Source: an uncultured candidatus Porisulfidus sp. (GTDB lineage Bacteria > Pseudomonadota > Gammaproteobacteria > Poriferisulfidales > Oxydemutatoraceae). From it: a DNA stretch of 64,000 nucleotides. The stretch spans positions 2,080,001 to 2,144,000 of the forward strand of contig OZ244052.1 in NCBI GenBank assembly GCA_965215125.1, written 5' to 3'. Positions 16,715 to 64,000 of this stretch are shown piece by piece (positions within the stretch are counted from its first letter, which is position 1; every line of letters begins with the position of its first letter). The translations under genes were made by a program, and so were the position numbers. Below the pieces are notes generated by a model, which saw nothing but the letters and a program-made list of their open reading frames with translations, did no database searches and had not been told where the DNA came from.

Positions 16715-16747
16715 CGATGTTTCACTATTCACGGTGCAAATAATACG

Positions 16748-17134: not shown

Positions 17135-17397
17135 AGTTGGAGACCACGATTATCAATAAGCTGGGATTGCATGCCCGCGCGGCGGCGAAGTTTGTTTCGC
17201 TTGCGTCAAGTTTCGCAAGCGATATAAAGATAAGCAAAGACGATCAAACGGTCAACGGCAAGAGTATCATGGGAGTTATTATGTTGGCAGCGGCAAAAGA
17301 TACGCCGTTGTTACTGACCATAGACGGTGAGGACGAAGAAGAAGCGGCAAACGGGCTTTGCGAACTTATAAACGACCGTTTCGGAGAGGAGGAATAA
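17128..17397 (+). CDS. ptsH: Phosphocarrier protein HPr/NPr
   Basis: NKLGLHARAAAK and NGKSIMG motifs. Confidence 0.93.
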   Translation: MVKLETTIINKLGLHARAAAKFVSLASSFASDIKISKDDQTVNGKSIMGVIMLAAAKDTPLLLTIDGEDEEEAANGLCELINDRFGEEE

Positions 17398-29228: not shown

Positions 29229-29420
29229 CACAAAAAGAATGTCAATTTTGTATTTTGTAAATCAGGGTGCATTTTGTGCCATAGTATACTACATAAATAT
29301 ATATCGGGCTATGATAAGCACTCGCCCTGAAAGCCGCAATGTTTATGCAACCGCAGTGTGAACTACATGCATAGGGTGAGGGAAAAATAAAGCTCTCGGC
29401 TAAAGATTTCCGGCTGATGA

Positions 29421-29504
29421 TACCGAGGGTGGGACTCGAACCCACACGGGTTTAACCCCACTGGATTTTGAGTCCAGCGCGTCTACCTGTTTCGCCACCT
29501 CGGC
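29421..29504 (-). tRNA. tRNA-Leu (anticodon CAA)
   Basis: The reverse complement GCCGAGGTGGCGAAACAGGTAGACGCGCTGGACT-CAA-AATCCAGTGGGGTTAAACCCGTGTGGGTTCGAGTCCCACCCTCGGTA folds as a cloverleaf with a long variable arm. Confidence 0.95.
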
Positions 29505-29733
29505 AGCAAGGCTACATTATAGACTAATCTATCCTATCTATACGATGAACCGTAGGGCAACGCCGGCATGCATCTACCTATGCATTTATCTTATATCGAA
29601 TAAGCCGGATTTTGATACTTGCTCTCCCTGAAGTATCGTTATTACAGAAACCTAACCGCTTATGCTATCAAATTAAGGTTGCTATAAATCAAATGGATTC
29701 AATGTATATAAATGTGCCGAATTATCCATTAAA

Positions 29734-29742
29734 TGTTATAAT
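29734..29742 (+). promoter_or_regulatory. Candidate extended -10 promoter of the giant gene
   Basis: TGTTATAAT (TGn-TATAAT), 38 nt upstream of ATG 29781. Confidence 0.45.
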
Positions 29743-29780
29743 TTGCCTACTGATTGCGCATCTATGAAATACACCTCTAT

Positions 29781-32700
29781 ATGAAATTATCGGATAATTT
29801 TTTACACATTATTATCGTCTCGTTTATGCTGTTCACAGGTGAGGCATTTTCCCAAGTTGGAGTTCGCGACAACGACCCTCGCGTATCCATCGTCTCGTCT
29901 TCTGTCGGAGGAGTCTACAAAGGCGATACCATACGATACACGATAAAGCTCAATGCCGTCACGAATCGCAACACTTCGGTTACTTTAGATATTAGGGAGA
30001 GCGGTAGTAGCGATCTCATAGACTCGCGATACGAAGGCATTAGGACAGTCGTCATTCCTGCCGGTAGTACCCGGACTACTCAAACAATCCCTACCAATAA
30101 TATCAGTCCCGGCAACAGGTTGGTTTTTAGTCGCGTTGATCTGCGCATAGCCGACCCGGAGGGAAGGGCGGTATATTCCATTGGTGAACCTGCTAGGCTA
30201 TCGCTTGCCATCGTCGACTCCGAGTGCGGTCACGCCGTCGATGCCGACATAGACGATGACGGCTTAATAGAAATTTGCGACTTAGAGGACTTGAATGCGA
30301 TCCGATATTCCCTAGACGGTAGCGGATACAGAGCGAACCGTACTGCGCCACTATTAAATCGGGGTTGCGACGAAGACGGCGACAACGGTGGCGTTTGCAG
30401 AGGCTACGAGCTCACAAGGAGTTTAGATTTTAACAAAGCAAGTAGCTATCGCTCGGGCCGCATAAACCGTGCATGGAGCGAAGACCTCGGCTGGCAACCG
30501 ATCGGAACAATTTCGGAATCCTTCTCGGGATATTTTGAGGCGAACGGTTTCTCGATTTCCAATCTCTATATCGACCGTCCGATCAAAACCGTCGGTTTAT
30601 TCCGGAGTATTGCGCCGTCGGCAACAATCAATGCGCTGACATTACTGCGCGTCGATGTCGAAGGTAGATCGGAGGTCGGTAGCTTGGTTGCCGTCAACGA
30701 AGGCATAGTTAGCAATATTAATGTAGTGAACGGTCGTGTAATCGGCACCATCGGCACCGTCGGTGGTTTGATCGGTGTCAACAAAGGCACCGTATTAACC
30801 ACGAATGTATTGTTGGACACGGTCGCCGGTGGTGTCTTTGAAAGACATTGTCGCAATAACCGAAGATCGAACGAATGTGCCGAGGCGGAGCAAGTTGAGA
30901 CGGTCCGAGACGGCGATACGGTTGGTGGTTTGATCGGCGATAACGACGGCGATGTAAGCGATAATTTTGTCTCCACCGATGTGCGGGGTGCGGAGCGTCT
31001 CGGTGGTTTGGTCGGTTTTAATTCCGGCCGCCTATTCGGTGGCAACGATGCCAGAGGCACCGTACGCGGCAACGGCTACGCAGGTGGATTGGTCGGTTAC
31101 ACTTTAAGTTCTATCACCGCCAATAAATCGAATGCCGATGTGACGGTAATCGGGAACTACGCAGGCGGTTTAGTCGGCTATGCGTGTTCACGCAAAATCA
31201 ATGCCCGAGAATGTATATCATCAAGAGGATTTATAGACCCCGCTCCGCAAACCCGTATCTCCGGTAGTTCGGCAAGTGGCAATGTCAACGGCGTTGAATA
31301 CATCGGCGGTTTGGTCGGGTTTAGTATCGCTAACACGATTGAAGAGAGTTATGCGAGTGGCGATATAGAGGGCAGTCACAATATAGGTGGTTTGGTCGGC
31401 AGTGCCGAGGACACCGCAATTGAAGAAAGTTATGCAAGCGGTGATATAGAAGGCAGTTATAACATAGGTGGTTTGGTCGGCAGTGCCGAGGATTCTGCAA
31501 TTGAAGAGAGTTATGCGATAGGTAATGTGCACGGTACCGCTTATAGCGTAGGCGGATTAGCCGGTTATATTTCCGGAGGCAATATTACTTTTAGCTATGC
31601 AACGGGTTCGGTTCTAGGAGACAATAGTACCGACCCCGACATAGACAACGATGTGAACAACGTCGGTGGTTTGATCGGCAGAGACGACCGAGCAAGGATC
31701 AGCAAAAGCTATGCCGACAACCCGCAAGTTTCCGGTGCCGATAAAGTGGGTGGTTTGATCGGTATTAAATTCGAGGGGTCGGTCAATGTCGCTTACGCGC
31801 GAAGCCCGGTACAGGGCATTAGTAGAGTCGGCGGATTGATCGGTGATAACAGCGGTTCCGTTGCCTTCGCTTATGCGAGCGGTAAACTGACGGCGAGCGG
31901 CGGCGATGTCGGTGGTTTAATCGGCTATATACCTCAAGGCAGAACCGGAATCGTCACCGATAGTTATTGGGATACCACCGAAACCGGCAGCGGATCCAGC
32001 CGTGGCGGCAGGGGCTTTGCCGACCTTAAAGCACCCACTGCGCCCGCTACGAATGCATCCGAAGTCTATTACCGATGGAGTACCGACGATTGGGATTTCG
32101 GCACCAACACCGAATACCCGGTACTCGAGCCCTCTGTCCGTATAGAGACTATAGCTGTCAACGGCTACACATTGGTTCCCGCATTTAATCCGGATGCGAG
32201 TAATTACTATGTAGTGGTAGGCGAGGATCCAAGCACGATTAGCATGAATGTTGCGGCAAGCGATGCCGATACCGAATTCACCGTTTCAAAAATCGACGAC
32301 AATAGTTCGGTGACGATAACCGGTAGCAATGACGACATACCGATCAACCTCAACGCCGCCCCCGCCACGACCGTGCTGAGCGTTGCCAATACCTATACGG
32401 TGAGAATCATTCGCAGTCTCAACGCGCAGATGACGATCAATGTGCCGAGTAAAGGAGTGGAAGAGGGTCAAAACATTCGCTTAAGTGTCGATAACAACAT
32501 CGAAAATCTTGTTCCCTTAATTTATACATGGAAGCAAATCTCCCCGAACAGCCCGTTATTGATGGGAGGTATAGATACCGGCATCACCGTAGCGCAACCG
32601 GAATTTAACATCGAGATACCCGGTAATTTCGTGCCGTCGGGACAAATCGCGCATGAACTACTACTGAGTGTAACGATAAGCGATGGATTCGGCAATACCG

Positions 32701-35700
32701 CCGTAGCATCCGAAAAGCTGGCTGTTATTAAGCTAAACAACGGCACTGCCGACAGCTTACCCCGTTTAGGGTTTATAGCAGATACCTCGATATTGCAATC
32801 ACCCGATGCCTTACAAATCATCGCCGCAGATCCGGACGGCGAAGCACTAAGCGATGCCGCTCAAAATCTTTTGTATCAATGGCAATTCAACGAAACGGGA
32901 ATCAGCGACTGGACCGACATAGACGACGCAAACGGTGCTGTTTTAGATATCGGCAAGCACGATGCACCGCATGCCCGTTATCGCCTGCGTATAAATTACC
33001 GAGACGGGCAGGGCTACGGTGATAGGCTGATATCGGCACCGACGATACCGATCGTCGATAAAGACCGCGACGGCTTGATAGAGATTTACTATTTGGAAGA
33101 CTTGAACGCAATCCGCTTTCAGGTAAACGGTAGCGGTTATAGAGCGAGTGCCGAGGATAAAAAAATAACCGGCGGCTGCCCCGATGCCGGCTGTATCGGC
33201 TACGAATTGGCACTAGACTTGGATTTTGAAGACGACAACAGCTATCGCAACCTCGCAAACAAAGCCGGATGGACGGTGTCCGACTTCAGCAATATACTCG
33301 ATAGAGGCTGGACGAACATATATCAAGGTACCATCGGATTCCCAAGCATCTTTGAAGGCAACGGCCACACCCTCTACAATCTACAAATGAATGTTACCGG
33401 CGGAACTACCGGTGTAAGTTTATTTGCTAATAATTCAGGTGTGATACGCAATTTCGGCATAGAAGATCTAAAGATAGGAGGTTTGGGAACAGCTCCCAGT
33501 ATTGCCGGTTTATCGGGGGATAATACCGGGAAGATTATTAATTGCTATGTACGAGGCGAAATCAACACCGGAAATGTTAATGTATTGGGTGGTCTTTCCG
33601 GAGGTAACACGGGGGGCGGAGAGATTATTAACAGCCATGCATCGCTGAATATTGTCTCTTCCGGGAATCATCGTTCTATATTAGGACGCGGTATCTTGGT
33701 CGGATATGCAGAAAGAAGTCGTATTATTAACAGCTATGCGACCGGCAAGCTCACCATAACCCGTCATACGGGTACCGGCGGCCTGGTCGGGACGGCTTTT
33801 AATAATTCGGAGATTATCAACAGTTATGCGATTGTGGATATTGTTTCAACCGCCGAAGTAACCGATAGTATAGGAGCATTAGTCGGAAGATTAAGAGGCA
33901 ATAACAACAAAATTATCAATAGCTATGCGATGGGTTCCGTCACATATATCGGTAATCTTGCGACCAATATCGGCGGTCTCGTCGGTTTCGTGGAAGGTAA
34001 TGGCACTATTCGCAACAGCTATTCGGTTGCCGAGGTCGTAACGAATTCAAGGTCTGCCACTACCGGAGGATTGATCGGTAGAAATAATTCCAATATGCCG
34101 ATCGTATCGAGCTATTGGGACACCATGACGAGCGGGCAGGCCGGCGGGCAGCCGGTGAACCGATTCGGCAGAGGCAAACCAACGACCGAGATGCAGCGAG
34201 GTAGCGCACAAAGTACCGATGCCAACGGAGTCTACCACAACTGGAACAATGAGAATTGGGATTTCGGTACCGCCCGGCAATACCCGGTTCTCAAATATAT
34301 CCCGCACCCCGCCCTAAGTGGCGAACCAACTTGCGATGCACCGGGATTGCCCGACTGCGGCACGCTCATCTCGCCGGCACTTCGCTACGGTTTAGAAAAC
34401 TTAGAAGCGGATATCGGAACTTTGAATCCCCCGTTCATTGCCGGAGGCTATTATTTAGGTGATGTTGAGATAGCCGATTTATCTACTCGGAGGATCCGCT
34501 TGATTGCCACCACCGTTGAAGACGATGCCGTCGTCAATATCTATGCTGCAGACGGTCAAACGCTATTGCAATCCGGTTTGCTCGGCGGTGAGCCCAGCAT
34601 GGCGTTTACATTCGCCGATGCCGAACCGACACGCCGTTTCGTGTTGGAAGTCAAAGGTAGCCGAACGATACGCCAGTCCGTTGCACTCACCCGTGTTGTT
34701 GCTCCGACACCGCCCGAGGTTTCCGGAGTAAAGGGATGTTCGGAATTAGCCGATTTCGCACAAGTCAGCTATTTGGAAGAGCTCAATGAGGTAAGAAATA
34801 ACCTAAGAGGCAAATATTGCTTGACCAGAAATTTGGATTTTCAAGACGATGCGAGCTATCTCGATCTGGACAACCGACAGACATGGACGGTGGATAATTT
34901 CGGCAACTCCGGCGATATCGGCTGGCAACCGATAGGGGGTGCTTTCAATGGCGTCTTCGACGGCAACGGTTATACGATCCGCAATCTGCAAATCAACCGG
35001 GATAATATCAGTCGCGTCGGCTTATTCAACGCTATAGGTACCGGCGGCACGGTTAGAAATCTGATCCTCGGAAATATTAGGGTTGAAGCGCATAGAACCG
35101 CAGTGCTATGGGCCGGCGGTCTGGCAGGTGATAACAACGGTACGATATTGAATAGCGGCATCATCGGTGGCAAGGTCGAAGGGGACGGCAGTGCTTCGGG
35201 ACAACCTAATTTCATAGGTGGCTTGGTTGGTAGGAATAACGGTGCCGGCGTTAACATCGGAGACATCTATAATAGTTTCGTGGTAGATACCGTAGTCGGC
35301 GTGATAACCGGCACCAACCCCGACAGTCATAACGTGGGTGGCTTGGTCGGCAGAAATATAAACGGTGGGGAGGTTCACAACAGCTATGCCGAGGTGGTCG
35401 CAAGAGGTTATTGCCATGTAGGCGGTTTGGTCGGTAATCAATTTACCAGTAATCGTGGTAATGCGGATACGATCAGTACGATTAGAAACAGCTATGCGGA
35501 TGTCACTTTAACAGCATTGAGCGGAACCTGTAGAATTGGTGAGGCGCGTGCTAAGTTGGTTGGTTTTAATAATGCTTCGGACATAATCAATAGTTATGCG
35601 AGAGGCACACCGGTAGGTACCGGTCTAATCGGTGGCCGCGTGGGTACTTTTGACATAACCAGAAGCTATTGGGATAGCGGGCCTTCTAATCTAGGAAATC

Positions 35701-59700: not shown

Positions 59701-62700
59701 CCGAATTACGGAGCTTGCAACTACGAGATACGGAAAACACCGACTTGCTTGCAGGAGTTTTTGCTACCGATACGCTAAGCTACGATATTGATGTTGCCAA
59801 CGATAACAATTTCATCGCCTTGATACTGGGGCCGCAGGACGATAATGTTTCCGGTATTACTTGGAACGGTGTGCCGTTGAGTTTAAGTGGGCTAAAAACC
59901 ACAGGCCTTGTTACCAGTCCGTCGCGTCGCTTGGCGATAGGCGAGAATGAAATAAAATTGAAAATAATCGCACACAACGAGATGAGCTCGCAGACTTATA
60001 CACTTAGAATCGATCGTGCGCCGAGTTCCAATGCCAGATTAGATAGTTTTCAAATCACGCCGTTTTCCGAGGGCGTTCCCAACCCTCCGGTGTCTCCGCA
60101 GAATTTTAATGCCGAAACACTATCGTACACCTTGCCCAAGCAGGAAAACGAGATAAATTGCATTACGGTGACCCCGGTGGCGGTGGATGACGAAGCAACC
60201 CTTGAAATTACTAAAAACGGAGATATCCCCGAAACGGATTACTTTGCCGGCAAGAACAATCGCGAGTCGAGCGGCTGTATAGATTTGAACATAGGGGAAA
60301 ATACGATCGTAATCCAAGTGACCGCATCCGATAAAACAACGGTTCGCCCCTATACGATAAGCATAGCCCGCAAGGCGAGTTCCAATACCGATTTGAGCGC
60401 ACCCCCGACGGTTTCGGGGACTACGGCAACCAGAGTTATCGGAACCGATAACTATACTGCGATGCTCGACAGAAATACAACGAGTTTTTCGGTATCGGTG
60501 GCAACCGCTCATCCGAACGCAACGGTGTTGATTAGAACCACCGACAACGACGAGGCGGGTCCCAGCCGAACTGCGTCCATAGATAGCATTCCTATAAGCG
60601 TTGCCGAACCGGTGCAAGAGATTACTATTATTGTGACGGCACAGGACGGCACACCCAAAGAATACACACTGACCGTTAGGCTGATACTGAACATGGATGC
60701 GAGTTTGGAGCGTATAACCGTAGCCGGTACTCCTGCAGTTAGGCAAGCCGATGGAACTTATACCGCGACTGTAGGCGATAATGTGGCGAATGTTTCGGTG
60801 ACCGCAGTTGCGAGAGATTCACTTGCAACGGTAGAGATTAAAGAAGTTGGCACTACGCCCACGAGCGGAACGAGGTCGGCGACGAAGCGTGTTAGCCTAG
60901 CCGAGACCGGAGACAGTAAAACCATAGAAATTGAAGTGACTGCGCAAGATGTCAGGATCGTTGAAAATTATCCTTTGACTATCACTCGCGCAGAAAGTAG
61001 CAATGATTGTTTGGAGGCTTTGGCGATTCTAAACAGCGCAGATAATAGTCGTGCGGCGGGTAGAACCCTCGGCAGCTGCAACGATACAAAGCAATCTTTT
61101 AATATAGCCAATTCGGTGGCACGGATACTGATCCAAGCGACTGCGGAAAACAATAGGGCGAATATCACGGTACGTGTGCCGGGCGACACCGCCGGTGAAC
61201 AGGTTTCAAGCGGTGAGAACAGTACTAAAGCTGTAGCCGTACCCGAAGGCGGCACGACGACGATTACGGCTGTGGTGACTGCCCAAAACGGTGCAACCAG
61301 CCGAACCTATACCGTGGCGGTGAAACGCGCCGCAAGTTCCGATACCGATTTGAAAAATTTGCAGGTGTTGGCAAACAATGTAAACCAGCTAACAACTTTC
61401 AGTAGTGAAAAAGAGACCCACGATGTAGATGTTTCTAATGCAATTACTCGTGCGACGGTAATTATTGAGACTCACTCACAGGCGAAGATTAAACTGAATA
61501 TAGACGGTGCGGAAGATATTGCTACCGGCACCGGTATGATTAGTACCGAATTTGAGTTGAAAGGCACCGGGACGACAAATCGTATTCGGGTTCGTATCGT
61601 GATAACCCCTCAAGATGAAAGTACTACCCGAGGCTACACCGTGTTCGTGACACGCGCCGACCCGGATAGCACGAATGCAGACTTAGGAACGATCGGGTTT
61701 GAGGTAGATAGAGACCAAGATGGCACTTATACGCCGCTGCCGGTGACAGTGACTGCCCCCGAAGAGGAGGGCAGCACAACCTATTCTGCACTTATCAGAG
61801 GAATAGCGGGGCTCGAAGTTCAGAATATAATTCGCATTAGGGTATCGCCGCGAGCTTTCGACGGTGCCGCAACGGTCAGTATAAACGGGGGGACGGCAGT
61901 GTCTGCGCCGAGCCTGAATTTGATGCTTGACGCGGCGTTGGATCAGGAGGAAGAGGCTATATCTATCAAAGTCATTGCCGAGAACCCCACGACATCTAGA
62001 ACCTATAGCCTGCTAATAACCCGAGAGAGTAGTTCGGATACCGGATTGCGTTCGTTGACAATCGGCGGTGGTGCATTGCAACTAGACGACGCAACAACCG
62101 AATATACTGCGACCATAGCCGAGAATGTGGAGAATACCATCATGAGTGCGAGTGCGAGACATTCATCGGCAACACTAATCCTCCGTGAGCAAGGGGATAC
62201 TACTCGGGTTGACAGTAGATCACGCAGTGTAAGCAGACTAATCAACATAGCCGATACCGGGGATCGTAGGACTTTTGAAATCATCGTGACTGCCCAAAAC
62301 CGACGCACGACCCGAGCATATACCGTGCGAGTGAACCGCAATCCGAGTACCGATGTGAGCTTGAATATTGCTGTGGGCGGTACTCCTGCGCTTAGGCGGA
62401 CCGACGGAACTTATACTGCGAGTATAGGTGAGCGTACGACGAATACTACTGTGGTCTTAACCGCCGGTAACAGATTTGCCATGGTCGAAGTTATGGGAGA
62501 CGGCATTAGCTCCGAGAGCGACATCGGGCGTTTAAGCAAGCAAGTTGCTATAGACAACCCCGGAGAAACGAGCGAATTACGGATTACCGTGACTCCACAA
62601 GCCGCCGGTATCGAAGCGCAGGATTATACTTTGACGGTGCGTCGCGACCGGAGTACCGATGCGAGTTTATCCCGATTGGAATTGCTCCCGCAACCGCCGA

Positions 62701-64000
62701 GTTCGGGTAATCCGGTAATTTTTGATTCGGTAACCGATATGCTCGAACACGAATTTTCCGGTACTGTGAGCGGTGTCAAAATAAAACCGATCACCCATCC
62801 TTTTGCAAATAAAGTAGAGATGTTTAGACCGGGGAGTTCCGCCGCCGAAGTCATAGCCGCAGGTGCGGAGAGTTCGGAAATCGCTTTAGCACAAGGCGAG
62901 ACGACGACGATTACCATCGTGGTGACCGCACAAAACGAAACGACAACTAGACCCTATATCGTGCTATTAAGCCGTGTAAATTCAAATACCGAATTAGACG
63001 GTATTAGCGTGCTTCCCGGCAGATTAGACCGACCTTTTAGATCCGATTTGAGGAGTTATAGTGTAGAGGGTCTTAGAAGAACGCTTACACTGACGGTCAG
63101 TGCTAAGACCGATCAAACGGTCGTAGCTAACGACACAGTTCTAACCAGTAACATAAGCCGAAACTTTAACTTGGATTACGGAGCAAACACGATTAGGATT
63201 GTAGTGACCGCAGCCGACGGAGTGACAACCGGGGGCTATACCGTGACCGCAATTCGTCCGGTCATCTTGGATCGTTTAGTACTGAGGGGGCTTAAGTCCG
63301 CCAATGGAACCCCCGTTGATTATACTTTTGACTCCTTTATAAGAAACTATACGGTGACGGTTGCGAACGATAGTTCGGAACTCACCGTGATACCCAACTC
63401 GGACGATGACGATATCGTGTACACAATTTCCGAAGCAGGCAGAGAACTGACACAAACTAACGGCAGGGTTTCAATTCCATTCAATGTGAGACAGACTAAA
63501 GTCATTAGTATAGTATTGACGGCACCGAACGGAACGACAAATACCTATGTGGTGCGTGCGACCCGTGAAATAAGTAACAATGCCAACTTGGATGTTTTGA
63601 GGATATTACCGGACGGCGGCACGGCGACGAGCTTCGACAATCTGGCAACAAGCACGAGTTATGTGTATCGCATTGCTAATCCGATAGTCGGCGACAAAAT
63701 AACCGAGCTTCGTTTGGAAGCGCAAGTGGAGCATAGTAGTGCGACGATTATAAGCTATACCATAGACGGTCTTGCGGTAGACGGCGTATCATTGGGTACG
63801 CGTAGCATAAACGATACTATTTCCGTAGACGAAGGCGAAACGAAGGAAGGCAAAATCAAAGTGCTTGCCCAAGACGCAATGACGAGCAAGACCTATACGG
63901 TGACGATTATGCGGCAACCGAGCCGAGATACGCGGTTGAGTATGCTGGAAGTGTTGTCCGAAGCGGTGGCGGGATTTAGTTTCGATCCTGCGGTGGCTAA
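29781..64000 (+). CDS. Giant (at least 11,406 aa, 3'-partial) secreted/surface protein with GLUG-repeat modules, PKD/Ig domains and cadherin-like beta-sandwich repeats
   Basis: ATG 29781 gives MKLSDNFLHIIIVSFMLFTGEAFS-QVG (signal-peptide-like). The same frame still reads EAVAGFSFDPAVA at 63960-63998. The ORF track lists no terminated + strand ORF in this frame past 29781, consistent with no internal stop. Recurrent motifs: DxDxDGLIEI, CxGYEL..LDF, GWQPIG, FDGNGYTISNL, VGGLVG/NSYATG and WDFGT..QYP.L. Confidence 0.92.
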   Translation, partial: MKLSDNFLHIIIVSFMLFTGEAFSQVGVRDNDPRVSIVSSSVGGVYKGDTIRYTIKLNAVTNRNTSVTLDIRESGSSDLIDSRYEGIRTVVIPAGSTRTTQTIPTNNISPGNRLVFSRVDLRIADPEGRAVYSIGEPARLSLAIVDSECGHAVDADIDDDGLIEICDLEDLNAIRYSLDGSGYRANRTAPLLNRGCDEDGDNGGVCRGYELTRSLDFNKASSYRSGRINRAWSEDLGWQPIGTISESFSGYFEANGFSISNLYIDRPIKTVGLFRSIAPSATINALTLLRVDVEGRSEVGSLVAVNEGIVSNINVVNGRVIGTIGTVGGLIGVNKGTVLTTNVLLDTVAGGVFERHCRNNRRSNECAEAEQVETVRDGDTVGGLIGDNDGDVSDNFVSTDVRGAERLGGLVGFNSGRLFGGNDARGTVRGNGYAGGLVGYTLSSITANKSNADVTVIGNYAGGLVGYACSRKINARECISSRGFIDPAPQTRISGSSASGNVNGVEYIGGLVGFSIANTIEESYASGDIEGSHNIGGLVGSAEDTAIEESYASGDIEGSYNIGGLVGSAEDSAIEESYAIGNVHGTAYSVGGLAGYISGGNITFSYATGSVLGDNSTDPDIDNDVNNVGGLIGRDDRARISKSYADNPQVSGADKVGGLIGIKFEGSVNVAYARSPVQGISRVGGLIGDNSGSVAFAYASGKLTASGGDVGGLIGYIPQGRTGIVTDSYWDTTETGSGSSRGGRGFADLKAPTAPATNASEVYYRWSTDDWDFGTNTEYPVLEPSVRIETIAVNGYTLVPAFNPDASNYYVVVGEDPSTISMNVAASDADTEFTVSKIDDNSSVTITGSNDDIPINLNAAPATTVLSVANTYTVRIIRSLNAQMTINVPSKGVEEGQNIRLSVDNNIENLVPLIYTWKQISPNSPLLMGGIDTGITVAQPEFNIEIPGNFVPSGQIAHELLLSVTISDGFGNTAVASEKLAVIKLNNGTADSLPRLGFIADTSILQSPDALQIIAADPDGEALSDAAQNLLYQWQFNETGISDWTDIDDANGAVLDIGKHDAPHARYRLRINYRDGQGYGDRLISAPTIPIVDKDRDGLIEIYYLEDLNAIRFQVNGSGYRASAEDKKITGGCPDAGCIGYELALDLDFEDDNSYRNLANKAGWTVSDFSNILDRGWTNIYQGTIGFPSIFEGNGHTLYNLQMNVTGGTTGVSLFANNSGVIRNFGIEDLKIGGLGTAPSIAGLSGDNTGKIINCYVRGEINTGNVNVLGGLSGGNTGGGEIINSHASLNIVSSGNHRSILGRGILVGYAERSRIINSYATGKLTITRHTGTGGLVGTAFNNSEIINSYAIVDIVSTAEVTDSIGALVGRLRGNNNKIINSYAMGSVTYIGNLATNIGGLVGFVEGNGTIRNSYSVAEVVTNSRSATTGGLIGRNNSNMPIVSSYWDTMTSGQAGGQPVNRFGRGKPTTEMQRGSAQSTDANGVYHNWNNENWDFGTARQYPVLKYIPHPALSGEPTCDAPGLPDCGTLISPALRYGLENLEADIGTLNPPFIAGGYYLGDVEIADLSTRRIRLIATTVEDDAVVNIYAADGQTLLQSGLLGGEPSMAFTFADAEPTRRFVLEVKGSRTIRQSVALTRVVAPTPPEVSGVKGCSELADFAQVSYLEELNEVRNNLRGKYCLTRNLDFQDDASYLDLDNRQTWTVDNFGNSGDIGWQPIGGAFNGVFDGNGYTIRNLQINRDNISRVGLFNAIGTGGTVRNLILGNIRVEAHRTAVLWAGGLAGDNNGTILNSGIIGGKVEGDGSASGQPNFIGGLVGRNNGAGVNIGDIYNSFVVDTVVGVITGTNPDSHNVGGLVGRNINGGEVHNSYAEVVARGYCHVGGLVGNQFTSNRGNADTISTIRNSYADVTLTALSGTCRIGEARAKLVGFNNASDIINSYARGTPVGTGLIGGRVGTFDITRSYWDSGPSNLGNLSRSSAQLRSPIGPNATSPELYTNWSTADWDFGTDTQYPILKHASGRNNNACGSTVTPACGTLISPQQRYGLSSLVLAGADTLSPAFDPNLLKYSATVTNDDDGIIRLTPTIKGTDAVFRVYIDDDKERPRFDLKNGDSSNDITLVHGNNRIIVEVDPRVSGVEAFRYTLDLYSLRYGVEDLYSSRIKDSRSSFIEIDSLEDLHAIRDNLGGSYRLTRDLDFRNDASYDNPTMNKAAWTVDDFADSADTGWQPIGDTFTGTFDGNGYTISNLQMNRAADNQGLFASIGSTGVVRNLGLIGVNINGGSSNSIGSLVGNNRGTIIASYAAGKVSGSLRVGGLVGNHIEGLIANSYAAVNVSGSQFIGGLVGRNTARILNSYAIGKVSGSSNFHGLVGVRSVGSSIINSASGAGSIGATFSYIQNSVVGSTLTCGAIGLPNCEDPIAPQLRHGLRNLTLETGRMSPAFRVNLPQYVGAVNAEDNAIRLIPTARDPDADITIYLITDQGRTQIGNIIGSGDTAAPILIMHDSVARVVIEVDPSTADAPVVQYLLHLRLLPPTDIENLEDLYAIRDNPDGIYRLARHLDFLDAASYRSGVVGTAWTVDDFDNSADTGWLPIGDTFNGIFDGNGYTIRNLQINRDNTDRVGLFGTVGADGTIKNLILRDIRVEAHRTGELYAGGLVGDNNGMILNSGVIGAQVEGAGSVSGESNLIGGLVGRNDGSIANIGDIYNSFVVDAEVGVIEGTAPDSHSVGGLVGGNIHGGEIHNSHTEGTVNGHCHLGGLVGNQFTADRSDADRISTIENSYANVTLTQPSGTCRITFARGKLIGLNDRSDIANSYARGLPGNVGLIGLSMNGGTLSDSYWDAGTSSQGGISRTSTQLQSPTDARGIYGNWSADNWYFGTATEYPTLKYTQNPDDRGSPACDGAGLPACGDRIVPRLRYVSLRDLTVVDGELFPVFDAADYSYSGIVASSDAVIRLSPVANDLAAEIKIYLVDRTDRMQLGRVIGSGDTSDPIRLNRYNSNHIIVEIRPSASGVPAVEYPLYLQYRRASEIESLEDLYAIRNNLNGAYRLSKNLDFDDDASYRFPEFKANWTVDNYNDAADLGWIPIGDETKPFTGSFDGNGYTISNLQINNNDESIYKGLFGVVGRSATVRNLGLLDAEIEVIQVREGEDLFVNPGVGVGTLTGKNDGTVIDSYAHGVIRGDVGLGGLVGFNSRSGEILNSYAVCTITARGVDIGGLVGYSEGRIGNSYAAGIITGSSFRVGGLLGVGLSASVLYNSYADSFISSIGSVGGLIGFDEEGGARDVYASGIVSGIRDDTGGLVGVSEAGRYINSYSISEVAGGVEDGTNISLEGGLFSRTNRATIENSYFADSSLPIVVDSPEVNLRNINSSVFTPAELRAATAQSTNASDVYYRWSDDNWDFGDTTQYPVLRYAPNVGGRTTACDGDGLPNCGDVIPRRALSALRIVDGKGRFDSFVFDPRYRFHSGVIESSTDMTQLVAVAASTDARITFVSFDTSGNETGRSTPMRSGREGVLSADISLSETEATHVAIEVITPGSVDRYHLSLRYRHIPVDQDDNFYTKIDTLDDLNAIRNNLDGSYLLTRHLDFNDDASYRNPSFKNSWTVADFADNADFGWIPIGSTNNGFTGTFDGNGYTISGLQINRDNSSNQGLFAFIGDNGIVRDLGLLDVKIDAGNTVGALAANSRGTIIGSFVVGEITARGIYAGGLVGLAQSATDYIINSYAVVNIEAVGSGAKSGYGGLVGVSLGDTRIINSFAHGTIVGSIDDAGGLFGSTFLSSRVKTIQNSYATVDIRANNKAGGLVGLSAANDSIVNSYATGSVHADTNVGGGLVGSIEGDTFFNNVVDKSYAISGVTGGSNLGGLIGATSGTRVTVDNSYWDIQTNRLDTSAGGTGRTTTELQSPITNSGIYSSWSTADWDFGNARQYPILKYTQNSETGDARACDGDGLPNCGNPISPQIRNGLKDLTLAGGVELSPPFGIKHSSLIGGYSGSVNANPIRIIPTAMQDNANINIYIDTVNDKRRPDQRIIKDVFGFSDAISAPITLREDGINRIVLEIVGTETVYYPLYIRYIGDSMSATDRNGDGFIDIYYLEHLAEIRNNLGGTYKLMRDLDFEDPDSYLAGAINRQWVVRDFGNTTDTGWTPIGSHTGRFNGTFDGNGFVISNLQINRDDTNDQGLFGNIDSNAVVSDLGLSDLTIEGDQYLGAFGGTNRGIIIGSHATGSVKGNQYVGGLVGDNLEAARIINSYAAVNVGGESTVGGLVARSDALIINSYATGTVSGERSLGGLVGLQRNGQIGNSYATGDVSTGVVNEGNNTFEFVGGLVGLKDVNGEIRDSYATGSVGGVNTARVGGLAGRSAGNTARISNSYATGSVVGSGGSQGGLVGEGASITVRDGYWNNQTSGLDASAAGTGKTTMELQLPTMATGIYANWSIDNWDFGSSIEYPILKYIRNPDSNGRRICNGNGLPNCGDLIGGQIRDGRLPIDRDANGFTEIYYLDNLHAIGTSTSTLAGRYELMRDLNFDDPSSYFAGEINRDWVVVDFANTTDTGWLPIGGITTPFTGEFNGNGYTIERLQINRSGQNNQGLFGVIDSSGVVRNLGLSNLRVAAGSRIGGIAGTLRGKIVNSYATGAVSGVGDVGGIVGVAAGTGVIVNSRSGIRLSATGINAGGMLGRCNNGCTILNSFAVGSVAGIGTNEDNIGGFVGRAEATSNIGNNYAWVDVSGGPFQTLLKVNANGGFFGALSINNNNVSVNANYSIGPSSLAYAGRQRSIVATINIARANYYNSDTVEPNSAPSPQVFAGRTMRQLRTPTEAGRNSGQIYYRWSPADWDFGTEMQYPLLKYTAATDVLGRSACRSAGDAPSRLPMCGTLIAPKTRYGLSALTARYAQLTTPFDDALSDIGGAYYTTVLNDVPRMRLVATTREATATYSVYIGGVRTPENMDIENGAISGEIVLAADGTTEVVIVVHGTRTVRYTLYLDYRFETSIDADNDGLVDLHYLEDVAMVHLNYQREIGYRRGGELNTLGCPNGVCRGYELMRDLDFNDPASYRDPARNGVMRRWTGQGWDSPNLSNAVFKGNGYEISNLKVTANISRNDAFFHLAFGTDIDGLGLVNVDISADNAADPHSVELAGLVGTFVNQIDNRGTIRNSYVIGDIRGAGSANISGLTYRAVGYSVSNSYFIGTLRLLGNNRRDNVIVSANGLVTSSAGFSSDSLGNSRAIGRIETAIENELIDTAMLGVDSTRSLNIGNSYASMLMTRAGVAQGNLSNSLARITNSYFDRDIARVDVPASRASSGAELRATTMTGIFADWDADDWDFGGAGQSPVIKYNSDECQRARHDNPLCGKILPHQGSLMERFELLGNAGLSRPFDFAIFNDYEIVVGADQQGLRFVAEAFAPNADIVVYKTTTDAEVVRVKSGADTPPIALNTVGDTLLDVVVEEGEDRKSFRYRFNVSRLNERIDLAAVDGDDGFIDIATPEQLNAMRHSLNGSFYRASRNGSRVYCRIGCRGYELTADIDLAGIDWQPIGRNGARFNTHFKGNGYVISNLTIHDPAFDEIGMFAYLGVDARLEDIHLRDASIRSSRFRNTIATLAVRNYGTIFNGRTENADILVGGNFGGGALVYENFGRIINSGAVGGMINHRSGAAGLVRLNRGTIKDSFATIAINNLSNRVGSGLVSRNFSGGEIDNSYAQSIISGNNVTIAGLVDNNEGLINNSYAINGPLVRTASGSLEVENSYWDRDTAAPGATSAGGAARTTIELQLADREKNSTDNVYNTWDTEQWHFGNADQYPTVLYHGTGLCTQPTEAQLQSCDTLVSAGLSQADRALVCRDRLLRNRADPPYCGALVPYQNRRGLIGLELPTDTRLVPEFSPEVESYNLMTSGTITVFHTTPTAYYHTDTVTFKVGNTEQIVADNTRTEEITVNRADVDAVTLSVRSAADTTRTYTINLRSPDYQDDIDIRLSALDNLKLFPDFNKNTADYHLIAYSDTDRVRLTTTATDPLGFVPSIEITADNGLSPVVLEGVGVAEVVLNPDAVTEITVVVSGQQRYRFEYRIVVERLPFRSRLDGSNLIDKDGNGLIEIDYLEQLDAMRYGLDGRGYSYAVETTTTLIKINSGCPAGGCRGYELTKDLSFLDDASYIDAQRAMPLWTEGTGWQPIGDFSNPFTAEFIADGYTISGLRINRRNTDNIGLFGVVSNAKIRGIGVLNAELRGASNVGILAGSSRESSNIINSYATGTVRAVNNGGGLIGVYQGNIVHSHANVSVEVNATAGGLVGELLPGNIRKSHVSGAVYSFSGIAGGLVGEVENATISDSYATATINASRSGGLVGSVTSHSPEAVGVRINNSYAIGVNRSAQSAGLVLNVLNVPIEVNYSYWDVDTSGVRNGLGGTSRTTVELQSTTTEIYNNWRSEIWDFGNNMQYPRLKYTTATDTLGSPPICRSASDISSRLPVCDELLPDQYIGLTDLVFSSEVLQLIPAFNSNIYDYTLVLKADETGFHTTPTYVGTVYRLSVDNNDLGNLASGTASSRIPVTASGSTRIELGKGGVVYTFTALRHPYLRINDMDVDDDGLIEIRNRTELDAMRYQPDGSGYRSPTVNEKISVGCPPVTGCVGYELAASIDLSGADWDPVGRINPATLDCSDGNSRCFAAIFDGNRALGYEISGLSIATPNRDNVGLFAHLSADAEILNLTLSDVSVAGWGGVGALAGYNAGIVRNVQVAGEVDGESDVGGVIGYNVGRLSSVRADPIRVVGNNIEGGYGELIGGLVGRSLGGSIVDSGATGEVIGRAFVGGLVGESDGLIEGSFADAVVIDTGASDGESYAIGGLVGYNTDKIYNSYAGGSVSGSSSVGGLVGINYQSFNNEGRIVNSYAIGSVLGINAIGGLVGRNEHNGKVSASYALGEVSGDVRVGGLVGLNFGTLVNTYATGATNSKQKVGGLVGDNLNTSDRSIVNSYAIGRVSDVSESGGLVGFNLRYSDIRSIRHSYWNLETAGVIDSRLGIGQTTVALLTPTAATGIYANWDTNLWDFGTSEHYPQLRYGRGDDSDNPACGGGGQPTCGSVRSYGLSDLQVLGSVLFSPRFTTPRLRYRIAAYVELSGSLRLIPHATDPDSMITIAYNGNEINVADGAVSDPIVLNPGVDDAIIVSVRNTGGTIEYILEIDYSGFDSDRILADSDGDGLIEITTLDDLYAVRYGLDGSAYIHILPDGELLPIAEGCPTTPTVGCKGYELTRDLDFRDAASYRSGVVNTKWADNWNPIGDDDNQFNAVFDGNGYYLRNLSLRGTRTKDAIGLFHTLGRNAEVKNLRLRGVNIYDVIGRAFNSRRAEKQGSLAGENRGRIYDVGVSDITALVGSSYNRRALKQSRFGGLVGVNRGGEISHSFAQVYIYSFSPHSGIFGDIVGGLVGRNDRGAKIKNSYATGAISGHCRLGGLVGEHVSANRNTAENISTIENSYARVNTNKVLNVKCIDEVFNVEGFVQGFGGLVGFMDQADIVNSYAAARQSGGVLGLIGRVRGTASAANSYWDNILNDKQSASTGVGETTAFGGQTTAVLQGTTTTIGIYASWNSDDWDFGTDEQYPTLKAADGSIAMQILDDSLVRNVEVRNAVIAKINDITRDFNHSRNSNRYAIYVDSTRLPLAITFITTPTVPGLETTLYCGDVRCPLVGIGDTLMLGHSDIQEITLAAGAGNRVMRYYFDIVREDLTLDNVTTINLKEGDTFTVSGDYAGNSDINWSQIAGPTIGIADANSLNLKLIPQVNLIANDSEHSDVRFRLAVSVDDKNGNPQVYLGREISARINKVNNGPITGDITLALNNDKITVTENLSDIDGSLTNAVRQFQRRSIGGNWADTNLTGSGLEYTAPREAIDYQYRLIGTYIDGQGYRDPVVSNTIIVPAISISLLSDTDNDSVANDDDIDDDNDGLIEIRYLEDLNAIRYQLDGSGYRASASADLNTRGCPNTGCFGYELTRNLNFTAAGAYRSGVVNGAWTVSDGQFTTTAEGWQPIGGAFNATFNGNGYFIARMSISRSSVGTRSNVGLFSEIGANGKIENLVIDFPAIKGLAGVKNVGSITGLLRRGGVIRNSDVYGTRDAGSSLRVIRTDRGSVGGLVGVNEGYILNSGARINVSVQDSDSTISNNGNVTVGGLVGRNRNGGRIHNSFYARGEIVGHCIAGGLVGSQETAGGSGDAISEIKNSYVFHDSRVLMRNASCTTRYLGGLVGRHLNGKSIIADSYAGGRAYALSLTPGGGSQCNGQGSFGRIANVQAQTDIRIAGLLNYTPGTDRVPTNSYWRREPYACVQSVPVFGAFVPIDTLAVTQADIGNRRSENNLRNPTAPCLSSSCTTYEDWNADDWDFGTDAQYALLRYTEGTNSADPACDFNDRTPLPRCGAFLSGQPNRNLVSPRLPTLSVIPPQAVIGYTLNGVSSVLNTLNTLTLNEGDTLSLDAGNSFSSDTAALNYRWKQTSGPELLSGTNAKSMIRFNVRNDLLPMATDRGRAIIRLEVLKRDNPGLSAFEYITINIIKTNRIGSGSVYWVDTSLIAPTEIIDADGTPITDIGYQWQRRMSGSLVDIAEETEAIYRVPDNAVNGEYRLKLSYTDGQGYADTIFISAPTYSPTRTVDTDADGLIDIFYIEQLNAIRYQLGGTSYKASMNATPNTKGCPSGSCKGYELLRDLDFDEPDSYSNTASNVVERWNDWDPIGTVVNRHQGFCSGSNQCFTGIFEGNEYTISNIRIRDGAFSTGVGFFAAVSGTAEIRRVRMAKVDVLGGFAVGTLVGGFAGGKIIDSHVLSGLVRANREDGGCLVGEVRGTNVEISNSSARCDLIGSVRLGGLVGMGNPTISNSFATGTMKLEFNNERGEEIGYGGLIGVLTQSGSIENSSSTMSITTEAARQNSSGFEHGLGGLAGITKTNTSIKNSYATGDMTARRPNFNNIRVGGLVGISVSDISGSYATGNVNRFGNDVINIMGGLVGENKGAISDSYATGNVRGNDKIGGLVGVNEGTVNNSYAIGDVTGGLSIGGLAGEMSGNISNSHATGKISINAGNNITLRAGGLIGDIRTGTVSNSYASGILSTSASNGAGLGGLVGYNNDPGTINNSYAAVSFRAAGANRGGLVGSNVSGNGISNSYSISEGLSDIRGRGLVNFNIGRSQRSYWDIDRSGQFSDGSGGTLGFSSEILKLMSVPGVNRHPYINWSTEHWDSGTTEQYPAIRYHDSTCSTNTPSANCRNILPRQRLGLRDLRFTQIGGRRQLQISPSFNNAVIKNDFDREAIENYTVLVDSKTSGIEISATASDPAGMITINGSSMSVGSANYVLVPDFPDAMTLNISVSQPYEITGKENLDVEYHLTLGTFPEINTITRNAAENEHAQSLSDSVPIREGHFITLTGRFIDLDGDDLRYEWTVDETQVSLLDRAALNGVVAGGSGNAALSFYLREDFIAADRSSETVRASLTVSDSDGSTVVREQSFVVVKYDNGTIDGISTPTRIGLIYTAPALDRVQLAEDPDGAGNPNDIRYRWQQQLDGSWSDVVNGSLGSYTIGGAIADYYRVVLNYSDGQGYRKDIVSAPVPASPEFVREVIPTSEGGSLEVFLDAAGLTPEFQRTREEYDVPSDTDSVDIVVISRSDAVYVNNMRIQGRVTTADLDYGDNKIIVELRGEDSSTRSYTIYRAYDVSLHRWGVAWQGVSPQTLDFLGTDLEPDPPVRISNDVDSITVTARVNELIDITIRSAGSTVGSITTSTQADELVAQAKISDLALGEHSIEFLLTSPDRRSTASHIVKVWRRYSSRLKNLSVVGMQPSIFNPERLEYFVSIPNHWEALNLNFETNERATLFVQGASISGGSTVATNLRIGRNTVPIRVTAPREQDTIYTIIVMRRYNLDLRSLSLTDLQMTPVALSPAFASTRHTYTAVVAAETSRVTVTFATDLELRSSVKAPGPVTVNEKTIQNNDPDDRIEKTTSIPLSFGENTIVIETSALGQRQATTLTVTRLRSSNAELRSLQLRDTENTDLLAGVFATDTLSYDIDVANDNNFIALILGPQDDNVSGITWNGVPLSLSGLKTTGLVTSPSRRLAIGENEIKLKIIAHNEMSSQTYTLRIDRAPSSNARLDSFQITPFSEGVPNPPVSPQNFNAETLSYTLPKQENEINCITVTPVAVDDEATLEITKNGDIPETDYFAGKNNRESSGCIDLNIGENTIVIQVTASDKTTVRPYTISIARKASSNTDLSAPPTVSGTTATRVIGTDNYTAMLDRNTTSFSVSVATAHPNATVLIRTTDNDEAGPSRTASIDSIPISVAEPVQEITIIVTAQDGTPKEYTLTVRLILNMDASLERITVAGTPAVRQADGTYTATVGDNVANVSVTAVARDSLATVEIKEVGTTPTSGTRSATKRVSLAETGDSKTIEIEVTAQDVRIVENYPLTITRAESSNDCLEALAILNSADNSRAAGRTLGSCNDTKQSFNIANSVARILIQATAENNRANITVRVPGDTAGEQVSSGENSTKAVAVPEGGTTTITAVVTAQNGATSRTYTVAVKRAASSDTDLKNLQVLANNVNQLTTFSSEKETHDVDVSNAITRATVIIETHSQAKIKLNIDGAEDIATGTGMISTEFELKGTGTTNRIRVRIVITPQDESTTRGYTVFVTRADPDSTNADLGTIGFEVDRDQDGTYTPLPVTVTAPEEEGSTTYSALIRGIAGLEVQNIIRIRVSPRAFDGAATVSINGGTAVSAPSLNLMLDAALDQEEEAISIKVIAENPTTSRTYSLLITRESSSDTGLRSLTIGGGALQLDDATTEYTATIAENVENTIMSASARHSSATLILREQGDTTRVDSRSRSVSRLINIADTGDRRTFEIIVTAQNRRTTRAYTVRVNRNPSTDVSLNIAVGGTPALRRTDGTYTASIGERTTNTTVVLTAGNRFAMVEVMGDGISSESDIGRLSKQVAIDNPGETSELRITVTPQAAGIEAQDYTLTVRRDRSTDASLSRLELLPQPPSSGNPVIFDSVTDMLEHEFSGTVSGVKIKPITHPFANKVEMFRPGSSAAEVIAAGAESSEIALAQGETTTITIVVTAQNETTTRPYIVLLSRVNSNTELDGISVLPGRLDRPFRSDLRSYSVEGLRRTLTLTVSAKTDQTVVANDTVLTSNISRNFNLDYGANTIRIVVTAADGVTTGGYTVTAIRPVILDRLVLRGLKSANGTPVDYTFDSFIRNYTVTVANDSSELTVIPNSDDDDIVYTISEAGRELTQTNGRVSIPFNVRQTKVISIVLTAPNGTTNTYVVRATREISNNANLDVLRILPDGGTATSFDNLATSTSYVYRIANPIVGDKITELRLEAQVEHSSATIISYTIDGLAVDGVSLGTRSINDTISVDEGETKEGKIKVLAQDAMTSKTYTVTIMRQPSRDTRLSMLEVLSEAVAGFSFDPAVA
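30230..57430 (+). repeat. Array of about 16 GLUG-type modules within the giant CDS
   Basis: W(D/Y/H)(F/S)G module ends at about 32091, 34257, 35788, 38388, 39960, 41514, 43068, 44246, 45705, 47103, 48997, 50829, 52455, 54792 and 57324. One shortened module at about 36285-37020 lacks this end. Confidence 0.8.
31338..31518 (+). repeat. 81-bp (27-aa) coding tandem repeat, about 2.2 copies
   Basis: Units start at 31338, 31419 and 31500: IEESYASGDIEGS(H/Y)NIGGLVGSAED(T/S)A. Confidence 0.9.
58450..64000 (+). repeat. Tandem cadherin-like beta-sandwich domains (about 90-110 aa each) within the giant CDS
   Basis: Repeating SSx(T/A)xLxxL...Y...I.VTA(Q/E)(D/N)....YT(V/L).V.R pattern from about 58.5 kb to the window end. 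Confidence 0.8.

Follow-up and report, generated by a model that had tools for sequence, protein, structure and literature searches.

Giant modular surface proteins are a known kind of product of host-associated bacteria such as Endozoicomonas, Apilactobacillus kunkeei and Omnitrophota. LapA, SiiE and MpIBP are giant adhesins of the type I secretion system (T1SS)/RTX class, SprB-type adhesins are cargo of the type IX secretion system (T9SS), and streptococcal IgA1 proteases carry an LPXTG anchor. Endozoicomonas encodes adhesion-type giant proteins, and giant adhesins are enriched in marine animal-associated Gammaproteobacteria (10.1101/2025.03.06.641946). The A. kunkeei proteins Giant1-5 are described, in the passages cited, as consecutively encoded and extracellular, with a share of ‘as much as 6%’ in a genome of 1.5 Mb (PMC12863079), while the cited passages on Omnitrophota giant genes report signal peptides, antiparallel beta-helices and peptidase/SecA-like domains, with secretin/GspE-type genes conserved near the giants (10.1101/2023.11.21.568195). 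Here we describe a gene of 11,630 codons that begins within a 64,000-nt stretch of the genome of an uncultured Candidatus Porisulfidus sp. (assembly GCA_965215125.1, contig OZ244052.1, positions 2,080,001 to 2,144,000; ‘the window’ throughout) and that ends in a 14-residue C-terminal tag common to a large family of giant genes.

The gene starts at an ATG at position 29781 on the forward strand of the window and runs to a TAG stop 673 nt beyond the window's end. Its full coding sequence is C1:2109781-2144673, where C1 is the single contig (2,220,706 bp, no N) of the source assembly, labelled G000, and the window is C1:2080001-2144000; positions above 64,000 are window coordinates extrapolated along that contig, and L001 is a locus record with its own numbering. 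Translation of the frame on the whole genome gave 11,630 aa with zero internal stops, a mass of 1.237 MDa and an acidic pI of 4.8. Such a frame cannot be open by chance, because about three stops per 64 codons puts the probability at roughly e^-550. An earlier note, made from the letters of the window, had described one open frame of more than 34 kb with a signal-peptide-like N-terminus and a product above 1 MDa, all of which held when the frame was extended: exact translation of the 11,630 codons met no in-frame stop, the N-terminal segment is present and has its like in the paralogues described below, and the computed mass is 1.24 MDa. An open reading frame listing with open ends allowed gives one frame at 29754..63998 (+), of 11,415 aa and with no stop within the window; the in-frame TTG at 29754, nine codons before the ATG, is a possible alternative start, but the starts of the paralogues correspond to ATG 29781. 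The most unusual feature of the gene, its conserved tag, lies at the 3′ end, outside the window. The two ends are as follows.

29781..64000, forward strand: in-window part of the giant coding sequence, an open frame that continues to extrapolated 64673
29781..29852, forward strand: putative Sec-type signal peptide, aa 1-24, read from the sequence and likely cut after ..EAFS before Q
64629-64670 (extrapolated; L001:7849-7890), forward strand: C-terminal tag LRVRVRVFLEGPLQ, aa 11617-11630, 14 residues
64671-64673 (extrapolated; L001:7891-7893), forward strand: TAG stop

The gene is not the single hidden gene for which it had been taken. Our own gene call of the 2.22-Mb genome recovered 23 tagged genes of 1,493-15,111 aa, amounting to 368,154 nt (16.6%); two of them, at 14,973 and 15,111 aa, are larger than the one studied here, three exceed 10,000 aa (and indeed 11,000), and 19 of the 23 carry at least three GGLxG motifs. 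This genome has GLUG matches in a large number of very long frames. At the N-terminus, 22/23 tagged proteins have a hydrophobic segment followed by a small-x-small site (..A-x-A or similar) and then Q, and the lone protein without such a start comes from a split gene, of which it represents the 3′ part. The split member, at C1:1653905-1664374, consists of a 1,263-aa piece with a signal peptide, a 348-aa frame and a 1,868-aa piece with the tag. Short tag-bearing remnants (14-63 aa) lie at C1 positions 1293308, 1403976, 1829193 and 1829832. Five tandem paralogues of 5,758-5,981 aa, each with a signal peptide, occupy about 90 kb of the minus strand (C1:350114-439624), and end in a variant tail, ..RVFPEGLLR or ..RVFPEGFLR. 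The likeness to A. kunkeei, as far as the cited passages describe it, is that of a giant extracellular family filling a large share of a small symbiont genome; here, by contrast, the share is 16.6% of 2.2 Mb, the 23 genes reach 15,111 aa, the cell is a diderm, the domains are others and a tag is shared.

Nearly all of these giant frames end in the consensus ...[IL]R[IV]Rx[KR]VFLEGPLQ-stop, 14 residues long. A regular expression for the motif matched 26 times among 39,247 six-frame segments of the source genome. Twenty-three matches abut a stop, of which 21 belong to frames of 1,500 aa or more and two to remnants of 39 and 63 aa; the other three comprise two followed by 1 and 4 residues and one spurious 30-aa frame, and none in this six-frame scan was internal to a giant. 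The residues that precede the tag belong to unrelated domain types. Within the tag the amino acids are kept while the codons vary: Leu -6 is written TTG, CTT, TTA or CTG, and Gly as GGT, GGC or GGA. No Pfam or NCBIfam model matches the tail (last 500 or 2,630 aa), and the peptide word FLEGPL was not found in the literature searched. We propose a tag family defined by [IL]R[IV]Rx[KR]VFLEGPL[QR] at the stop together with an N-terminal signal peptide, and the giant protein has both.

The tag is narrowly distributed. In a survey of 41 related genomes that included the source (G001, G003 and G004 are congeners; the family is labelled f1), the tag-plus-stop DNA pattern, with at most one mismatch, occurred in 7/41, all of family f1: 16 copies in G000, 17 in G001, 39 in G003, 9 in G004 and 2 in G014, with 26 in G006 (ending ..PLR) and 5 in G007 (..GALQ). 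There were 0 in the other 34 relatives, and a reversed control gave 0 everywhere. A looser exact pattern occurred in 2/401 genomes across the class, both of family f1, with one control match, and among 241 million metagenome records seven tag-plus-stop loci were found, all short spurious frames (18-56 aa), with no real tagged gene. A 36-position profile built from 25 tails retrieved 77 proteins at E ≤ 0.001 among 1.84 billion representatives; the tag is the very C-terminus in 75/77, and ten of the tagged matches lie on contigs up to 2.96 Mb. Tagged cargo extends beyond the giants to S8 subtilases with a P-domain, proteins with only immunoglobulin (Ig)-like domains and proteins without a known domain. 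In relatives, the tag is also carried by G006 proteins of 287-1,239 aa and by a G007 protein of 873 aa that has a signal peptide. In G006, at C3:513720-514214 (L048 about 16721-17215), four tag-plus-stop copies stand exactly 156 nt apart amid tandem tagged genes. Cadherin-like relatives in other phyla have, at the tag's position, a T9SS type-B C-terminal domain (CTD) or a dockerin-like end. On these comparisons the motif is conserved at the level of the peptide, confined to the terminus, lineage-specific and independent of cargo type.

One giant of the source genome has a different end. At C1:1506013-1519635, an untagged protein of 4,540 aa has a C-terminus made up of a G-rich motif, then a hydrophobic helix, then RRRK, an arrangement resembling the tripartite signals of the GlyGly-CTERM/PEP-CTERM type; this genome would therefore use at least two kinds of C-terminal signal on its giants.

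Relatives of the first GLUG module of the gene studied here were found in 10/41 genomes (the source, 4/4 congeners and 5/14 other family members) and in 0/22 genomes from three sister families. Related loci come from Candidatus Porisulfidus and Candidatus Oxydemutatoraceae, with weaker matches in a Myxococcales metagenome-assembled genome and in Aliikangiella coralliicola. Open frames in congeners reach 18,986 aa; the protein homologue search for longer relatives reached 4,604-5,000 aa. Candidatus Porisulfidus is linked to sponges and is named in a sponge genome note; in published trees it stands as outgroup to SUP05/Thioglobaceae.

The earlier note had named GLUG modules and cadherin-like domains and had set the protein apart from non-ribosomal peptide synthetases/polyketide synthases (NRPS/PKS) and RTX proteins. 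Both domain types, which are known families, were recovered when the whole protein was searched, with Pfam reported at E ≤ 0.01 and NCBIfam at 0.1: GLUG (PF07581) in the first two thirds at E 5.8e-49 and 2.1e-41 (161.6 and 137.9 bits; gathering threshold 20.5), and Cadherin-like (PF12733) at E 3.1e-139 (454.2 bits; threshold 24.2), in 18 stretches of the last 2,630 aa. Many individual GLUG matches above the cut-off lie inside C1:2109754-2144673. The other Pfam matches were to the GLUG-bearing part of Peptidase_M26_N and, weakly, to PKD and DUF6242; NCBIfam added nothing relevant. Neither collection found an NRPS/PKS or RTX domain, or any lyase, hydrolase, epimerase or other catalytic family, and no HExxH motif occurs anywhere in the protein. 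An hmmsearch with a profile of module 1 delimited 16 GLUG modules, and a self-built hidden Markov model (HMM) found 25 cadherin-like domains, of which 17 lie between aa 9256 and 11488 and eight in the spacers. GGLxG occurs 71 times in the whole protein. Each module follows one plan, a head (DxDxDGLIEI..LE.L.AIR), then GGLVG turns, then an end (SYWD...WDFG..YPxL); the DxDxDG loop, which resembles a calcium loop and may bind calcium, is found at the head of 10/16 modules. Internal modules share 32-41% identity with module 1, and the spacers measure about 130-330 aa and contain domains of the cadherin-like or Ig-like type. The parts of the gene between signal peptide and tag are these.

29853..30230, forward strand: N-terminal domain, aa 25-150, with no Pfam/NCBIfam match, preceding the first GLUG module
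30231..32162, forward strand: GLUG module 1, aa 151-794; DxDxDG loop and helix cap, GGLxG beta-helix, SYWD...WDFG..YPxL cap
32163..33053, forward strand: spacer 1, aa 795-1091; a cadherin-like beta-sandwich (HMM, aa 808-878, E 1e-13) and a second Ig-like domain
33054..57374, forward strand: GLUG modules 2-16 with spacers, from the module-1 profile hmmsearch, as in the next fifteen lines
33054-34301, forward strand: GLUG module 2, starting at aa 1092
34698-35843, forward strand: GLUG module 3, starting at aa ~1640
36291-37040, forward strand: GLUG module 4, starting at aa 2171
37278-38444, forward strand: GLUG module 5, starting at aa ~2500
38748-40010, forward strand: GLUG module 6, starting at aa ~2990
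40413-41576, forward strand: GLUG module 7, starting at aa 3545
41997-43124, forward strand: GLUG module 8, starting at aa 4073
43209-44309, forward strand: GLUG module 9, starting at aa 4477
44712-45755, forward strand: GLUG module 10, starting at aa 4978
46161-47144, forward strand: GLUG module 11, starting at aa 5461
47973-49058, forward strand: GLUG module 12, starting at aa 6065
49440-50876, forward strand: GLUG module 13, starting at aa 6554
51267-52502, forward strand: GLUG module 14, starting at aa 7163
53484-54848, forward strand: GLUG module 15, starting at aa 7902
55590-57374, forward strand: GLUG module 16, starting at aa 8604
57375..64000, on to extrapolated 64628, forward strand: C-terminal stalk, aa 9199-11616 (~2,400 aa), with 17 cadherin-like beta-sandwiches

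An AlphaFold2 model of module 1 (aa 151-794), built from a 33-row alignment, predicts a long right-handed parallel beta-helix with a mean predicted local distance difference test score (pLDDT) of 91.5 and a predicted template modelling score of 0.90. When the PDB was searched with this model by Foldseek, no structure reached E ≤ 0.001, and a protein-atlas look-up returned GLUG clusters only. VIA-align, run on Foldseek's candidate chains, placed IgA1 proteases first (7uvk, Z 25.4 over 265 aa with a root mean square deviation of 3.2; 6xjb, 24.3; 7uvl, 24.1; 6xja, 23.9) together with BACOVA_03286 (3n6z, 22.1); these matches at Z 22-25 align 244-268 residues at 18-23% identity. The modules are thus predicted, from the model of module 1, to have the GLUG beta-helix fold seen in solved IgA1 proteases, and so can be recognised; the earlier note had not recognised the architecture from any characterised protein. 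Like the IgA1 proteases (ZmpA, M26; 7uvk, 6xjb, 6xja) and BACOVA_03286, the giant combines PF07581 repeats with a right-handed beta-helix; it differs in lacking an M26 catalytic domain or HExxH, in having 16 GLUG copies rather than one, in its diderm gammaproteobacterial host, and in the tag at its C-terminus, where no Gram-positive wall anchor is reported. An M26 IgA1 metalloprotease was accordingly rejected as an identity for the product: the match (39.3 and 20.5 bits) is confined to the N-terminal part of the family that bears GLUG, no HExxH is present, and the NCBIfam ZmpA match scores 27.7 bits against a cut-off of 3000.

The next step down in the same comparison, with Vag8 (7akv) at Z 17.2, PL6 lyases at 16-17, AlgG/AlgE4 at 15-16 and tailspikes, depolymerases among them, at 14-16, bears on another possible function, in which the 16 beta-helices would form a tethered, multi-site fibre that binds, cuts or epimerises polysaccharide of the host matrix or of biofilm. 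The alignments to the glycan-active enzymes cover 250-330 residues, as such an array would have it, yet their identity is only 5-14%, IgA1 proteases and BACOVA_03286 lead by a clear margin (Z 22-25) with a GLUG beta-helix that is non-catalytic, and the family searches returned no lyase, hydrolase or epimerase; a glycan-active array therefore seems unlikely. At the other end of the protein, the model of the last 330 aa (mean pLDDT 63.7) contains two confident beta-sandwiches and a poor third domain, and the final 15 residues, at a pLDDT of about 31-34, have no secondary structure in it.

Might the frame be an artefact, either an assembly chimera of paralogues or a decaying pseudogene held open by luck? 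The genome offers material for such an error in its many paralogues and dispersed repeats, and one paralogue is visibly split (C1:1653905-1664374). The stretch was matched in six public runs from three studies, and contigs from four runs of three studies were compared over 29600-49599, the first 20 kb. Short-read contigs match this region in lengths of 0.2-4.3 kb; 0 differences are seen in the long pieces of three runs, and no insertion or deletion is listed. The contigs break at repeats and none bridges the 20 kb, and contig ‘joints’ with sides of 20-42 letters resemble repeat-graph artefacts. Because no single contig spans the stretch, the contigs of other samples do not confirm its long-range contiguity, which thus rests on the assembly and on the similar intact frames of relatives. 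Two such frames, of 12,827 and 16,152 aa, match the giant from its first residue on, with 67% identity across 1,100 aa, and both have the tag as their C-terminus. A blastn search of the coding sequence against the genome found no off-diagonal match within the gene at ≥80% nucleotide identity over ≥150 nt, and repeats within the protein are 28-71% identical. Against the paralogue of 14,973 aa (C1:132358-177312), dN/dS is 0.34 (dS 0.90) over 4,713 aligned columns; aa 4476-9001 are colinear with it at 56.5% identity, also with a dN/dS of 0.34, and the remaining aligned blocks give 0.27-0.34. An artefact is thus extremely improbable in the face of 11,630 codons without a stop, selection on the protein, internal repeats below 80% nucleotide identity, identical long contig pieces without indels from other samples and studies, and an N-terminus and C-terminal tag that are both present, as in the relatives. 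To judge from these comparisons, the giant gene is intact and under selection.

The same blastn search found only three patches of strong similarity to the rest of the genome, of 0.9-1.3 kb and 80-94% identity, all matching the 14,973-aa paralogue.

34769..36034, forward strand: gene-conversion-type patch, 89.5% DNA identity
44223-45109: patch, 80.3% DNA identity
63345 to the stop (64673): patch, 90.7% DNA identity; the last 330 aa are 90% identical

Recent gene conversion with this paralogue is suggested by the contrast between these patches and the remaining alignment, where divergence is far greater.

By what route such a protein would leave the cell was considered against the described secretion classes. 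A type I secreted RTX adhesin of the LapA, SiiE or ice-binding type would emerge C-terminus first through ATP-binding cassette (ABC), membrane fusion protein (MFP) and TolC components and be retained by its N-terminus. Giant T1SS/RTX adhesins are likewise megadalton, Ig-like fibres with calcium-type loops; the protein studied here is giant and acidic and has Ig-like repeats and DxDxDG loops, and the genome has one TolC-like gene. It has, however, a Sec-like N-terminus (as in 22/23 family members), GLUG beta-helices and no RTX repeats, no HemolysinCabind or other T1SS-linked family was matched in Pfam or NCBIfam, no ABC/MFP genes lie beside it or beside any tagged gene, and the conserved end is a 14-residue motif rather than the usual T1SS signal of 50-60 residues. 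A T1SS/RTX adhesin was rejected on these grounds, and we consider that reading very improbable.

Type V secretion, including two-partner secretion (TPS), was rejected as well: Pfam finds no autotransporter barrel or TPS domain, and the genome has a lone Omp85-family gene. Autotransporter passengers (Vag8, 7akv, Z 17.2; Fap2, 9qe7, Foldseek E 0.18) resemble the modules as Sec-exported right-handed beta-helix fibres, and differ from the giant in these elements. T9SS cargo of Bacteroidota (for example P0002, a 4,637-aa cadherin-like protein with a type-B CTD) is alike in its Sec start, its Ig/cadherin-like repeats and an extreme C-terminal sorting element common to adhesin and enzyme cargo; the tag differs in being a 14-residue peptide, modelled as unstructured, where the CTD is a folded 70-100 residues, and its lineage is gammaproteobacterial. 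T9SS cargo was rejected given that no CTD model matched in the last 500/2,630 aa and that the end is modelled as unstructured, T9SS genes themselves not having been searched for. Nor does the end fit a tripartite CTERM/LPXTG-type signal, the protein stopping right after ..VFLEGPLQ with no hydrophobic helix. With a Sec-type start, no T1SS, T5SS, T9SS or CTERM element and a shared tail, the protein appears to differ from every described class tested.

In the source genome, a single frame matches the Omp85 family, 776 aa long and presumably BamA; four secretins and a TolC-like gene are also present. One secretin cluster (C1:179153-184310) comprises genes for a PilMN-like protein, an unassigned protein of 220 aa, PilP, a secretin that is a lipoprotein and a T2SSE ATPase of 394 aa, and lies between the tagged giants of 14,973 and 7,236 aa; a PBECR2 nuclease-like gene follows it (to 184809). 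The same adjacency of secretin cluster and giant recurs in G004 (L047) and, by coordinates, in G001. Omnitrophota, in the passages cited, are alike in their very long genes, signal peptides, beta-helical regions and a secretin-type cluster by the giants, and differ in phylum and domains; those passages mention neither GLUG nor a shared C-terminal tag. A family of about 280-330 aa precedes three giants that lack GLUG, two of them tagged and the third the untagged giant of 4,540 aa. Another secretin (1487887-1489638) stands at C1:1481000-1491100 amid small genes, with duplicated 180-aa and chaperone-sized genes; by eye, this cluster looks like a type III secretion-like one.

The distribution of the tag leads us to infer a sorting or anchoring role for it, which would place the stalk next to the cell. 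It is possible, though we would not call it likely, that the tail is a new kind of C-terminal sorting signal for diderm bacteria, short and with neither membrane helix nor folded domain. It would send proteins exported through Sec, whether giants of 15,000 aa or subtilases, to a route of outer-membrane export and anchoring that is either undescribed or repurposed; this route would be confined to one SUP05-related gammaproteobacterial family, which gives about a sixth of its genome to the substrates. Candidate routes are the extra secretin/ATPase system beside two giants, or capture of an amphipathic strand by BamA.

For the gene itself, the reading we favour, and think probable, is of an intact, selected gene for an 11,630-aa surface adhesin or fibril that is exported through Sec and sorted by its tag. 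The N-terminal signal peptide would pass the chain through Sec, and the chain would fold, in the periplasm or outside, into rigid units, 16 GLUG beta-helices alternating with cadherin-like beta-sandwiches, ten of the beta-helices being capped by calcium-loop-like DxDxDG heads. The stalk of about 2,400 aa and 17 cadherin-like domains would follow the modules, and the last 14 residues, an unstructured amphipathic peptide, would sort the C-terminal end to outer-membrane export and anchoring, leaving the stalk near the cell and the beta-helix array projecting outward. There the exposed beta-helices may bind ligands of the host, the matrix or neighbouring cells. The earlier suggestion of a surface adhesin or host-interaction filament thus stands as the most likely role, one that is read from the architecture.

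Several points weigh against this. The giant product is known here from its DNA, adhesion would follow from the domain plan, and signal peptides were judged by eye and by a crude rule. Glycan lyases, epimerases and tailspikes have the beta-helix fold of module 1 too, at Z 14-17. The genes beside the tagged ones, for VWA proteins, aconitase, SBP56, a porin and MotA/ExbB-like proteins among others, are housekeeping or unrelated, and no export partner or receptor was found among them. The PilMN-like protein of the secretin cluster, present in 13/41 genomes, does not track the tag, because it is absent from G014 (2 tags) and present in the tag-negative G005, G010 and G013. We know of no diderm bacterium in which a tag without membrane helix or folded domain has been described, and the role of this one as a signal is therefore drawn from its distribution. 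The breaking of contigs at repeats, with no bridge across the 20 kb compared, belongs here too.

The gene sits in an otherwise ordinary neighbourhood. Upstream, on the minus strand, are genes for a class-I aldolase (fba), pyruvate kinase (pyk), PGK, GAPDH (gap) and transketolase (tkt), then a tRNA-Leu.

29419..29505, reverse strand: tRNA-Leu (CAA), by ARAGORN and Rfam RF00005 (59.9 bits), 276 nt upstream of the giant gene

Downstream are genes for a SnoaL-like protein, xseA, guaB, guaA and a solute-binding protein; no secretion gene adjoins the giant gene on either flank. The rest of the window holds housekeeping genes and one PD-(D/E)XK transposase (688-1680, E 6.8e-29). Promoter and terminator scans, upstream and downstream, were not clearly above shuffled controls. 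Just past the stop, at L001:7930-8105 (~64710-64885), dispersed repeats lie in intergenic DNA: an element of 36-41 nt with about 150 copies in the genome and one of 110 nt with about 60, both in either orientation and neither specific to giant genes.

In G001 and G004 the interval between tkt and xseA measures about 0.8-1.1 kb; in the source genome it holds the tRNA-Leu, the 35-kb giant gene and the SnoaL gene. The gene that comes after tkt in G003 is another GLUG gene (~30% identity), homology to the window ending ~300 nt past 29000, and none of G001, G003 and G004 has a tRNA at the corresponding place. The best N-terminal matches in G001 and G004, the tagged frames of 12,827 and 16,152 aa, lie at other places in those genomes and were rejected as positional orthologues, having different flanks and no tRNA. 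By its content in these congeners, the tkt-xseA locus is a variable spot for giant genes.

Such variation is also what might be seen if the giants formed a protective or decoy coat, a dense and variable layer against phagocytosis, grazers or phages for which adhesion is secondary. The very large family (23 genes, 16.6% of the genome), the varying content of the tkt-xseA locus among congeners, the gene-conversion patches and a dN/dS of about 0.3, relatively high for a core protein, would all suit a coat; the same features, however, fit adhesins diversifying under host pressure, and phase-variation repeats were neither sought nor seen. We judge a coat improbable as the primary function.

What sets the giants apart from the described classes tested is the combination of a Sec-type start, no tested export element and a shared 14-residue tail, and the share of the genome given to the family is also unusual. 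At 16.6% of 2.2 Mb, and with congener frames of ~19,000 aa, the family shows how much a streamlined bacterium invests in its surface. Should the tail act in sorting, it would indicate that an undescribed process carries megadalton fibres through the outer membrane or to its surface, and the peptide is a simple handle for finding the export machinery. Between sister species the family changes quickly, one locus holding different genes, and gene-conversion patches occur; turnover of this pattern is expected at an interface with hosts or phages. The size and turnover of this rapidly reshuffled family suggest that it is central to the surface biology of the organism.

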